From the NCBI RefSeq assembly GCF_053078305.1, contig NZ_CP166879.1: a DNA stretch of 64,000 nt; one strand, 5' to 3'. The notes beneath the pieces were generated by a model. It made no database searches. It worked only from the letters and a program-made list of their open reading frames with translations, and was not told the DNA's origin. Position 1 is the first letter of the stretch. Each line of letters starts with the position of its first letter. Of this stretch, positions 7,935 through 23,953 are shown piece by piece. The position numbers were made by a program, and so were the translations under genes.

Positions 7935-9602
7935 TTATTGCAAACGTTCTAATAAACGAGCCAGTTTTTTATTGCCGCCGGCGACTGGCGACCATTGGTA
8001 ATGCACAACCGGTTTGCTGGCGCTTTGTAGCTCCAGCGCAAAACTGCGTAATCCGATGTTAATCACGGCGACGTTTTCCAGTAATGACGGTGTGTGTTGC
8101 TGTGCGGCAGGCGAGAGCGGATGAATTAACGCTGCCGCCAGCAAGGTGGCTTCCGGTAGCGAACTCACGACCGCAATCCCCGCATCTTCCAGCGTGGCGA
8201 TTTGCTGCGAGCGGCATTGCGGGTCACGTTCGGTACCTGTCACCGTGGCAATGGCGTACAGCGGTTGGCTGTCTGAACGCGCGGCACAGGCTTTTTGCCA
8301 GGCGCTCACCAGCGAGGCGGCAGGATCGGCGGTCGCGCCGAAGCCAATCACGACATCAAGTAGCAATACGCGCACTGACAGTTTAGCGCCGAGATCGGCA
8401 ATTAACTGGTTGCGTAAGGTTGGGTCGATCATCGGATGGGGACGCCCGACGGTGTAGAAATCATCGCCAAGGTCAATAATCTGGTGACCATCGGCGTCGA
8501 GCATCATGCCGTGATGATGGGCATCATCGGCTTCCACGCCAAGGTGTCCGGCAAGTAATCCCGCCGCTTCGGCAGCCAGCGTACCGCCGGTATACAAACC
8601 GCAAATAAATCCGCTGCTGACAGGTGCTATTGCGTTACGTCGCGCCGTGACGCGTGAAAGCAGGCAAGCCAGGCGTGCGGCCTCATCCAGCGAGGAGGCA
8701 AACCAGACATTCTCGTCGCGGGCCACCGCCGGGGTATAACCTAAAAACAGCGCCACCGTCGGTTTGCCGGTTGCTTTCATGGCATTAACAATTTTCAGAC
8801 GCACCGCTTCGGCAGGTGGTTTTGAAACAAATGCCAGCACTTCGCTTTTCTCGTCTGCACTGAGCATTTCCAGCGCCGTCAGCGCACTGATGCCGCCCAC
8901 TTCACGGCTGAGGTCGCGGCCGCCAAGGCCAATCGCGTGAGTAATTCCCTCCCCTGCCAGCGCAATCTGCGAGCACAGCTCCTGAATCCCGGTACCGGAA
9001 GCGCCAATGACGCCAATATTGCCTTCCGGCATCACGTTAGCAAAAGCCAGCGGCGTGGCGGCAATCATCGACGTACCGCAGTCCGGCCCCATCACCAGCA
9101 AGCCTTTTTCTCGCGCGCGGGTTTTAAGTTGGATTTCATCTTCCAGCGTGACGTTATCGGAGAACATCATCACGTTGAGGTTGCGATCCAGCGCCTGATT
9201 CGCCAGCTCCGCCGCATACTCGCCAGCCACTGAAATCAGCGCCAGATTGGCATCGGGTAATTTCTGACAGGCACTGTCCCAGCGACGCACCTGCGTCAAG
9301 GACTGGCTGCTGCCTGCCCCCTGCGCCAGTTGTTTTAGCGCCTCTTCAAGCTGCTGCATAATCGCCTGCGCGATCCCCGCATCCGCCGCTTCGCTACGAA
9401 TTGCCACGCAAATATCGTTCGGCGTGGCGTTATTAAAATCGTCATGCCAGAAACCTGTGGTATCTAATAACGCTTTATTGGCGGGCGTACCCATCATTAC
9501 GGAAACATCATCAACATTTTCTGATTCGCTGAGTTTTCGTGAAATAATCATTAAACTGACCGAATCCTGAAAACACCCTTTTTTAATAAAGGCGTGGATC
9601 AT
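7935..9602 (-). CDS. fdrA: FdrA protein (succinyl-CoA synthetase alpha-like / CoA-binding)
   Basis: 555 aa ORF (MIHAFIKKGCFQDSVSLMIISRKL...) at the expected position. Confidence 0.9.
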   Translation of the reverse strand: MIHAFIKKGCFQDSVSLMIISRKLSESENVDDVSVMMGTPANKALLDTTGFWHDDFNNATPNDICVAIRSEAADAGIAQAIMQQLEEALKQLAQGAGSSQSLTQVRRWDSACQKLPDANLALISVAGEYAAELANQALDRNLNVMMFSDNVTLEDEIQLKTRAREKGLLVMGPDCGTSMIAATPLAFANVMPEGNIGVIGASGTGIQELCSQIALAGEGITHAIGLGGRDLSREVGGISALTALEMLSADEKSEVLAFVSKPPAEAVRLKIVNAMKATGKPTVALFLGYTPAVARDENVWFASSLDEAARLACLLSRVTARRNAIAPVSSGFICGLYTGGTLAAEAAGLLAGHLGVEADDAHHHGMMLDADGHQIIDLGDDFYTVGRPHPMIDPTLRNQLIADLGAKLSVRVLLLDVVIGFGATADPAASLVSAWQKACAARSDSQPLYAIATVTGTERDPQCRSQQIATLEDAGIAVVSSLPEATLLAAALIHPLSPAAQQHTPSLLENVAVINIGLRSFALELQSASKPVVHYQWSPVAGGNKKLARLLERLQ

Positions 9603-9840
9603 AACAACTCCTTAAAAATTGCACCCATGGCAATTGCACGAGCAGTGTTAATGTGGCGATTACGGTATCGATGACAACGGGTAAATAAGGTGATGAATAT
9701 CACACAGGGATTATTAACAAAAGAATTCAAATAACCGCCATGCTATTACGTGTTATTTTTTAATAAGCGTGGTTGTTTTAAAAACCAGGTTAAAAGCGAG
9801 CGGATTATCAAATAAATTCTAACTATATTTTTTTGCCTGT

Positions 9841-9858
9841 CTGGATCACATAATCCAG
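9841..9858. promoter_or_regulatory. Palindrome in fdrA-allD divergent promoter region (candidate regulator site)
   Basis: ctggat-cacata-atccag perfect 6-6-6 inverted repeat about 60 bp upstream of allD. Confidence 0.3.
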
Positions 9859-9918
9859 ATATTTTCCCTGTATGTTAATTGCAGTCATGCTTCACACCGT
9901 CGTTAAAAAGGAAGACAG

Positions 9919-10968
9919 ATGAAAATCAGTCGGGAAACACTCCACCAGCTAATTGAGAATAAACTCTGCCAGGCTGGGTTAAAACGTGAGCACGCTGCAA
10001 CCGTGGCTGAAGTATTGGTTTACGCCGATGCCAGAGGGATCCACTCTCATGGCGCGGTGCGCGTGGAATACTACGCGGAACGCATTTCAAAAGGCGGCAC
10101 CAACCGCGAACCGGAGTTTCGTCTTGAGGAAACCGGGCCGTGCTCGGCAATTTTACATGCCGACAATGCCGCCGGACAGGTCGCGGCGAAAATGGGTATG
10201 GAACATGCCATCAAAACCGCCCAGCAAAATGGCGTTGCGGTGGTCGGTATCAGCCGGATGGGTCACAGCGGCGCAATCTCTTATTTTGTGCAGCAGGCAG
10301 CCCGCGCCGGATTAATTGGCATTTCGATGTGTCAGTCCGATCCAATGGTGGTGCCGTTTGGCGGCGCGGAAATTTACTACGGTACTAACCCACTGGCCTT
10401 TGCCGCGCCGGGAGAAGGCGACGAGATCCTTACCTTTGATATGGCGACTACCGTACAGGCATGGGGAAAAGTGCTCGACGCCCGCTCGCGTAATATGTCT
10501 ATCCCGGATACCTGGGCGGTCGATAAAAACGGTGCACCAACAACCGATCCGTTCGCGGTACATGCTCTGCTCCCCGCAGCCGGGCCGAAAGGGTATGGCC
10601 TGATGATGATGATTGACGTCCTCTCAGGCGTCTTACTCGGCTTACCGTTCGGGCGACAGGTTAGTTCGATGTATGACGATTTACACGCCGGGCGTAATTT
10701 GGGGCAATTACATGTAGTTATTAACCCGAACTTTTTCTCCTCCAGCGAATTATTCCGTCAACATCTTAGCCAGACCATGCGCGAATTAAATGCCATTACC
10801 CCCGCGCCCGGTTTTAATCAGGTTTATTATCCCGGACAGGATCAGGATATTAAACAACGCCAAGCCGCCGTCGAAGGCATCGAAATTGTTGATGATATTT
10901 ACCAGTATTTAATTTCCGACGCGCTTTATAACACGTCATACGAAACGAAAAATCCCTTTGCGCAATAA
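9919..10968 (+). CDS. allD: Ureidoglycolate dehydrogenase
   Basis: 349 aa Ldh_2-family oxidoreductase; first gene of allDCE. Confidence 0.95.
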   Translation: MKISRETLHQLIENKLCQAGLKREHAATVAEVLVYADARGIHSHGAVRVEYYAERISKGGTNREPEFRLEETGPCSAILHADNAAGQVAAKMGMEHAIKTAQQNGVAVVGISRMGHSGAISYFVQQAARAGLIGISMCQSDPMVVPFGGAEIYYGTNPLAFAAPGEGDEILTFDMATTVQAWGKVLDARSRNMSIPDTWAVDKNGAPTTDPFAVHALLPAAGPKGYGLMMMIDVLSGVLLGLPFGRQVSSMYDDLHAGRNLGQLHVVINPNFFSSSELFRQHLSQTMRELNAITPAPGFNQVYYPGQDQDIKQRQAAVEGIEIVDDIYQYLISDALYNTSYETKNPFAQ

Positions 10969-22366: not shown

Positions 22367-22387
22367 TTTATTCCTACCTCTATTTAT

Positions 22388-22404
22388 TGGAAAAATTTTC
22401 CAAC
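22388..22404. promoter_or_regulatory. Candidate AllR operator in the gcl promoter
   Basis: Perfect palindrome ttggaaaa-a-ttttccaa between the allR terminator and the gcl start. Confidence 0.55.
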
Positions 22405-23936: not shown

Positions 23937-23953
23937 TTGGAATATTTTTCCAA
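23937..23953. promoter_or_regulatory. Candidate AllR operator in the allS-allA intergenic region
   Basis: ttggaatatttttccaa, same TTGGAA-N5-TTCCAA architecture as the gcl site. Confidence 0.5.

Follow-up and report, generated by a model that had tools for sequence, protein, structure and literature searches.

The perfect palindrome in front of the allD gene is probably an incidental symmetry and not itself a functional unit, because the heptamer GATCACA, which runs from its left arm into its spacer, is unchanged in 36 loci while its right arm is found only in Escherichia. From their conservation and position, the left arm and the start of the spacer, TCTGGATCACAT (9840-9851), very probably constitute a promoter-proximal element that contacts an activator; this element is most likely one half, the promoter-proximal one, of an activator site of the class II type. 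We propose that TCTGGATCACAT is part of an ancient one-sided element of the allD promoter, located at about -43 to -32, and that ATCCAG arose only in the Escherichia lineage, within an unconstrained stretch, the symmetry having come about by accident. Taken as a whole, this account, an incidental palindrome superimposed on a conserved, one-sided, class-II-type contact for an activator of allD, is in our estimate evenly balanced between holding and failing.

The palindrome, ctggatcacataatccag, occupies positions 9841-9858 of the 64-kb window (the entire stretch of DNA that was analyzed) and consists, on direct reading, of the arms CTGGAT and ATCCAG separated by the spacer CACATA. It is also perfect in a 7-6-7 form at 9840-9859 (TCTGGAT/ATCCAGA), and in its widest form, at 9838-9861, 8 of 9 positions are paired in each arm (TGTCTGGAT/ATCCAGATA). 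The intergenic region between fdrA (allF) and allD of E. coli is 316 bp long, with 36% GC; 61 bp separate the end of the palindrome from the allD ATG, and allC and allE come next after allD. Thus, the location given in the original prediction, about 60 bp upstream of allD in a 316-bp AT-rich divergent region, is confirmed from the sequence, and its description of a divergent fdrA-allD promoter with AllS-dependent allDCE was right, judging by the gene map and by Rintoul 2002 as cited in PMC12535856. The coordinates of all relevant features are collected in the table.

Inverted repeats of this kind are frequent in the window: the perfect 6-6-6 form occurs 26 times, and arms of six bases with a spacer anywhere from 0 to 12 give 304 repeats; among repeats with seven-base arms, there are 9 with a spacer of 6 and 93 with spacers of 0-12. 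In dinucleotide shuffles of the intergenic region, a 6-6-6 palindrome was found in 14% and any six-base inverted repeat in 75%; the corresponding values for seven-base arms were 3.75% for the 7-6-7 form and 33% for any inverted repeat with a spacer of 0-12. The palindrome does not exceed chance expectation and is not statistically unusual.

Table. Features of the fdrA-allD region and AllR operators of the window (positions in window coordinates; TSS, transcription start site)
Feature	Position	Strand	Basis or remarks
fdrA (= allF) CDS	7935-9602	minus	
Putative allF -10, TACCGT	9662-9667	minus	3 key positions >=90% conserved in the Enterobacteriaceae alignment
Full CRP site aaGGTGAtgaataTCACAca	9687-9706	.	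Centre 9696.5; -41.5 from predicted allF TSS; conserved in orthologues
AllS-binding EMSA fragment	9746-9805	.	PMC12535856, coordinates converted
Block GATTATCAAATAAATTCTAACTAT	9803-9826	.	Nearly invariant; -80 to -57, centred at about -64 to -68 from predicted allD TSS; ATA-N9-TAT (T-N11-A box)
One-sided motif TCT(G/A)GATCACAT, core GATCACA at 9844-9850	9840-9851	plus	Invariance in alignments and 36 loci; near-consensus CRP half-site
6-6-6 palindrome CTGGAT-CACATA-ATCCAG	9841-9858	.	Direct reading; perfect 7-6-7 at 9840-9859
Right arm ATCCAG(A)	9853-9859	.	Escherichia-specific; about -30 to -24, between conserved motif and -10
Putative allD -10, TATGTT	9871-9876	plus	Fixed offset from GATCACA, 35 loci
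Predicted allD TSS	9883-9884	plus	7 nt downstream of conserved -10; CA at 9882-9883; 36 nt before ATG
allD CDS, ureidoglycolate dehydrogenase	9919-10968	plus	
AllR operator TTGGAAAAATTTTCCAA, gcl promoter	22387-22403		Perfect 6-5-6 palindrome
AllR operator TTGGAATATTTTTCCAA, allS-allA region	23937-23953		Perfect 6-5-6 palindrome

A scan of one genome per species yielded 80 allD loci, with fdrA divergent from allD in 34 of these; the 36 loci containing the motif comprise these 34 and 2 with incomplete flanks. Alignments were built for 18 Enterobacteriaceae and for more distant Enterobacterales (Serratia, Erwinia, Pantoea, Budvicia, Pragia, Providencia, and Rahnella). GATCACA was unchanged in both alignments and in all 36 Enterobacterales loci, as the core of a wider conserved motif, TCT(G/A)GATCACAT, and the left half of the palindrome is among the most conserved non-coding bases of the region. 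The right arm ATCCAG was present only in E. coli and E. whittamii; at the same position, Citrobacter has ATCAAT or TTAGAT, and Klebsiella has TTTAAG. Among the 35 loci scored, 33 matched the right arm at four or fewer of its six positions and one at five, and none of those outside Escherichia had an inverted partner for its own left arm. Conservation across Enterobacteriaceae, which the original prediction had put forward as a check, with poor conservation counting against the palindrome, is indeed poor, the right arm being confined to Escherichia.

In E. coli, 5296 genomes contain the exact 30-mer that spans the palindrome, and the neighboring 30-mers at 9803-9832 and 9886-9915 were found in 5311 and 5148 genomes, respectively. 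Ten Escherichia sequences varied at 47 intergenic positions, of which 45 fell in 9625-9802 and two in 9803-9918. This invariance is not specific to the palindrome: the whole 116-bp allD-proximal region (9803-9918) is equally invariant.

The GATCACA motif accompanies the divergent fdrA-allD arrangement of Enterobacterales. The allD homologues of Proteus (loci L026-L031, L037, L044, L051, and L054) and of Firmicutes (L043-L080) have neither a divergent fdrA nor GATCACA, and many Bacillales loci have fdrA on the allD strand, downstream of that gene. Further matches to the motif across the window were at chance level only. A check for co-occurrence with allS found this gene within the fetched flanks at only one locus. 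A direct repeat, ATCA(A/C)ATAA, at 9807 and 9845 is lost in Klebsiella, and we took it to be a coincidence.

Some genomes carry insertions at this locus. The fdrA-allD intergenic regions of Klebsiella spallanzanii (L017:2561-3003) and Serratia sp. Ag1 (L024) each contain about 125 bp of inserted sequence whose long ends are inverted copies (..CACCCCAGTCAC..CTCCTGGGG..); the insertion looks like an ERIC/IRU-type repeat. In Serratia sp. Ag1, it is located between the putative -10 and the allD ATG, and the motif is 206 bp from the ATG. In E. coli GCEC19 (NZ_CP137765.1, 3696091-3697583), an IS1 transposase separates the two pieces in which the 716-bp query matched, so that in this one strain IS1 has inserted within the fdrA-allD control region or beside it.

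The position of the motif within the allD promoter was derived from 35 loci anchored on GATCACA, in which every offset was scored with a sigma-70 -10 matrix. The best offset places a hexamer 27 nt after the G of GATCACA, with a mean score of 4.72 bits compared to 1.49 for the second-best offset across these loci. The hexamers found there include TATGTT, TATTTT, TACATT, TATTGT, TATGGT, and TATGCT, with T1, A2, and T6 fixed and a variable middle, a conservation pattern that is the signature of a real -10. The gap between GATCACA and this T-A-N3-T hexamer is constant at 20 nt. No conserved canonical -35 was found alongside the allD -10 in the 35 loci; a missing functional -35 is expected of activator-dependent promoters. 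Spacing from the -10 suggests that allD transcription starts near 9883. Relative to this predicted start, the motif spans -43 to -32 and the palindrome -42 to -25, and the right arm falls in the otherwise variable stretch that separates the motif from the -10.

Two sigma-70-like matches on the minus strand point toward allF, namely, TTAACA-17-GATTAT at 9878-9850, with its -10 inside the palindrome, and CAGACA-16-TAGAAT at 9843-9816. Their number does not exceed that in shuffles (mean 1.4), and their hexamers are unconserved in other genera.

The conserved element matches the CRP consensus half-site (..TCTAGATCACATTT), and the motif TCT(G/A)GATCACAT(T/A) corresponds to the right half of the consensus CRP site AAATGTGATCTAGATCACATTT together with its spacer. 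A CRP weight matrix was derived from 39 high-affinity sites listed in Table 1 of the Footprint-seq preprint (PMC12871828), which includes only sites below 10 nM, the full list consisting of 1,217 regions. With this matrix, the half-site at 9843-9852 scored 12.5 bits, ranking second among the approximately 64,000 window positions; the median for the better half in the training set is 11.2. The other half, GCCTG, scored -11 bits, and the full E. coli site only 1.6 bits compared to 10.5 for the weakest training site. In other words, of the two inverted half-sites TGTGA-N6-TCACA, the right TCACA is perfect and the left is poor. Across the orthologues, the good half scored 11-13.4 bits throughout, and the left half averaged -5.5, barely above random AT-rich sequence (-10.1 +/- 5.9); so weak and unconserved a left half is odd for a dimer site. 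Full-site scores of 11-14.5 bits, within the high-affinity range, were obtained for Rahnella, Providencia, Atlantibacter, an Erwinia MAG, and Budvicia.

In the CRP register, the site would be centred at 9842.5, that is, at -40.5/-41.5 from the predicted allD start, which is the class II position; the 20-nt gap between motif and -10, giving -40.5, compares with the canonical 21. At class II CRP-dependent promoters, for example, galP1, the CRP site is centred at -41.5 and replaces the -35. Strong reliance on one half has precedents: the galS CRP site aaTGTGAtccagaTCGTTatc has a Kd of 7.5 nM despite a poor second half (PMC12871828, Table 1), and the weakest CRP sites lean mainly on one half-site (PMC12871828). 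CRP also has a precedent in the allantoin regulon because allS is regulated by CRP in K. pneumoniae, as reported by Xue et al. 2016 according to work that cites it. That the conserved allD half is specifically a CRP contact appears plausible to us, at slightly below even chances.

The layout shared by the two divergent promoters is the best argument from context for interpreting the allD-side motif as a contact of the CRP type. On the allF side, GTGA-N6-TCACA at 9689-9704 is invariant and, at 19.4 bits, is the top-ranking CRP site of the window. Footprint-seq detected a novel CRP site centred at NC_000913.3 546586, labelled "allD / fdrA," with a Kd of 9.8 nM in vitro (PMC12871828, Table 1). 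The conversion MG1655 = 556282 - window position is exact here, with substitutions only and no indels, and places this site at window 9696, so that it is the allF-side site. In the same table of sites below 10 nM, the allF-side site is present and the allD-side half-site is absent (PMC12871828). Exactly 21 nt past the CRP core toward fdrA, 30 of the 34 loci have a T-A-N3-T hexamer (TACCGT, TAGCCT, TAGCTT, TAGTTT, and others). The allF transcript would then start near 9655, and relative to this predicted start, 9687-9706 would be a class II (-41.5) CRP site for allF.

Another palindrome, AATTGCACCCATGGCAATT at 9616-9637 (minus strand, 9622-9644), immediately precedes the ribosome-binding site of allF within the putative 5' UTR. 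Most Enterobacteriaceae retain it as AATTGCACCCATTGCAATTG, and in the minus-strand direction it was flagged as terminator-like; it could be a translational or attenuation element.

The same intergenic region has been studied from the allF side by Kim & Kim 2025, whose model comprises AllS and ArcA (PMC12535856). We converted the coordinates of that work from the allF ATG at window 9602, which puts the palindrome at -239 to -256. The EMSA fragment shifted by AllS, allFp -203/-144, corresponds to window 9746-9805, and the PRODORIC AllS prediction (score 1.0, centred at -181) corresponds to approximately 9783; the ArcA predictions map to 9719, 9736, and 9765, and the ArcA EMSA fragment maps to 9685-9744 (PMC12535856). 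The AllS shifts were obtained with crude lysates, an unrelated protein being the sole control (PMC12535856). Matrix matches for OxyR and SoxS map to 9826 and 9839 and were judged to be without a direct role, deletion of oxyR or soxS having no direct effect on the allF reporter (PMC12535856); we rejected SoxS and OxyR as regulators near 9826-9839 on these grounds. The palindrome lies outside every fragment tested in that study and at least 36 bp from the AllS fragment, and the annotated site at approximately 9783 misses it as well. The original prediction had offered the palindrome as a site for AllS or some other regulator; as an AllS operator, it is poorly supported, the AllS-binding fragment excluding it, and the alternative of another regulator survives for the left half, which is invariant and, lying where an LTTR activation site would be, may also be contacted by AllS.

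Sequence conservation points to other locations for AllS. The block at 9803-9826 resembles the published motif of the AllS paralogue AdnB/YdhB (TsttwTCAAwAwwwTTGaaGGCA). A second conserved AT-rich block, GATTATTAACAAAAGAATTCAAATAAC at 9710-9734, is similar to GATTATCAAATAAATTCTAACTAT, lies at about -67 from the predicted allF start, and overlaps the predicted ArcA sites. We consider these two blocks candidates for the true AllS recognition sites and, by their conservation, better candidates than the annotated site at approximately 9783. The AllS EMSA fragment holds only 3 bp of the 9803-9826 block and contains neither block in full. Between genera, no part of the intergenic region is less conserved than the stretch at 9741-9802, which includes the annotated AllS site and most of the AllS EMSA fragment. 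This stretch is also a polymorphism hot spot within E. coli: the 30-mer at 9765-9794 was found in 2125 genomes compared to more than 5100 for the allD-proximal 30-mers, and MG1655 differs from the window at 9771, 9785, and 9797.

In the mechanism that we favor, cAMP-CRP, weakly bound through one half-site, would co-activate allD, probably aided in synergy by RNA polymerase and by AllS bound upstream, and AllS would supply the pathway-specific signal. A more detailed version is tentative and, in our judgment, somewhat unlikely to hold in full: allD and allF would form a mirrored class-II CRP-type pair, in which allF has a full site at -41.5 and allD a half-site at about -41 that works only with AllS at the block near -65, and the real AllS sites would be 9803-9826 and 9710-9734 instead of approximately 9783.

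The most serious competitor of a CRP-type contact is an activation-binding site (ABS) for AllS. Here, the conserved element, or in E. coli perhaps the whole palindrome, would be the promoter-proximal contact of an AllS tetramer that sits on about -65 and about -40 and touches RNA polymerase. LTTR sites combine a T-N11-A recognition dyad near -65 with an activation site near -35 to -45, and the geometry, reckoned from the predicted start, is compatible: the AdnB-like T-N11-A block at 9803-9826, at -64 to -68, would be in the classic recognition position, and the motif would fall within the -45 to -25 expected of an ABS. Being one-sided, the motif also suits an ABS better than a CRP dimer site, and AllS is needed for allD expression (Rintoul 2002, as cited in PMC12535856). 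The palindrome, however, is not an LTTR dyad, given that GAT-N6-ATC amounts to T-N14-A and is lost outside Escherichia. Furthermore, neither the AllS fragment at 9746-9805 nor the database site at approximately 9783 contains the motif, and the motif has no counterpart in the fragment shifted by AllS. Poor conservation is usual for activation sites, but GATCACA is unchanged all the way from Escherichia to Providencia, and both the match to the CRP consensus and the mirrored layout of allF would have to be coincidences. We consider an AllS activation site rather unlikely.

Alternatively, GATCACA could be a feature of the core promoter, such as a displaced -35-like ATCACA, and not a regulator site, the palindrome being pure chance. 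ATCACA matches TTGACA at 4 of 6 positions and lies upstream of a conserved -10 that has no conserved canonical -35. This reading appears improbable, however, because the spacer of 20 bp is beyond the usual 16-18, the invariance extends to the G and A at 9844-9845 and the T at 9851, which fits a CRP half-site better than a -35, and an activator-dependent promoter is expected to have no functional -35 at all.

The full palindrome might, in turn, be an Escherichia-specific operator for some dimeric regulator, for example, an aerobic repressor covering -42 to -25, or might function as a hairpin in DNA or RNA. It covers part of the core promoter, a place of action for repressors, its 7-6-7 form is perfect, and the exact sequence recurs in 5296 E. 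coli genomes. As RNA, it folds with -10.9 kcal/mol (z = -3.6), and none of 200 shuffles folded as well; a scan for terminator-like structures also flagged it as a stem followed by TTTTCCCTGT. Nevertheless, the right arm is unconserved even in Citrobacter, the consensus fold of 12 orthologues has zero conserved or covarying pairs, the invariance in E. coli is common to all of 9803-9918, and the window contains 26 such palindromes. A transcription start at 9883 would place the hairpin outside the allD mRNA, and the window gene map contains no upstream gene on the plus strand to terminate. Nor do the geometries of AllR, FNR, or LTTR sites match, and the oxyR and soxS deletions had no direct effect on allF (PMC12535856). 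Altogether, we judge an operator or hairpin function very improbable.

Several specific candidates were rejected. An RNA hairpin or attenuator is at odds with the lack of conserved structure among the 12 orthologues, and an intrinsic terminator with only 3 G-C among 9 stem pairs, a broken T run (TATTTTCCC), and no conserved pairs. FNR (TTGAT-N4-ATCAA) was rejected because the palindrome, TGGAT-N6-ATCCA, has the wrong spacing and its conserved half is ATCAC, with the CRP-type C, instead of ATCAA, and sigma-54 because of mismatches to the consensus, with both the GG and the right arm unconserved.

Direct repression of allD through an operator for the IclR-type AllR, a reading that the original prediction had also left in play, is scarcely credible: the palindrome shares a TGGA...TCCA core with TTGGAAAAATTTTCCAA and TTGGAATATTTTTCCAA, but its spacing is TGGA-N8-TCCA versus TGGA-N7-TCCA, its inner bases differ, its right arm is unconserved, and a search of the 64-kb window for TTGGAA-N5-TTCCAA with up to two mismatches matched only 22387-22403 and 23937-23953. 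Consistently, VirtualFootprint finds no AllR site in the fdrA-allD intergenic region, and allR deletion leaves allF'-'lacZ unchanged (PMC12535856).

If the proposed role of CRP is correct, the anaerobic oxamate branch of allantoin catabolism would be under direct catabolite control. The published model of how allantoin is used anaerobically relies on AllS and ArcA and does not include CRP for allF; confirmation would bring in cAMP-CRP as a further component. As a common, chance-type symmetry, the palindrome does not merit annotation as an operator for AllS or AllR. A by-product of this analysis is a testable map of allD and allF that consists of a conserved -10 and a predicted transcription start for each gene, a CRP site bound in vitro (allF), a CRP-like half-site (allD), and two blocks near -65.

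Among known systems, the AllR operators share with the palindrome a location in an allantoin-regulon promoter and perfect inverted symmetry around TGGA/TCCA; the palindrome, however, is 1 bp longer between these cores and has other inner bases. Like an intrinsic terminator or a 5' stem-loop, it has a 9-pair stem and a 6-nt loop followed by a T-rich stretch, but only 3 of the stem pairs are G-C, the T stretch is interrupted, and the structure probably lies upstream of the transcription start and is unconserved in orthologues. The likeness to LTTR systems concerns the motif, which would occupy the activation-site position downstream of a T-N11-A block at about -64 in the promoter of a gene with AllS as its known activator; the palindrome itself is T-N14-A and outside the AllS fragment, and the motif is far more conserved than typical activation sites. 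CRP sites with one strong half, galS and yidL, are present in Table 1 of the Footprint-seq preprint (PMC12871828), and the right half plus spacer on the allD side, tctggaTCACAt, is identical to the strong half of galS. As in class II CRP promoters, the allD-side centre would be at -40.5/-41.5, with no -35; the divergent allF promoter carries a full CRP site at -41.5 from its predicted start. Unlike in known CRP sites, the distal half on the allD side is GCCTG, neither TGTGA nor conserved, the full site scores 1.6 bits, and the gap is 20 nt. The paired class-II CRP-type model would add modestly, and in a testable way, to a kind of system that is already known.
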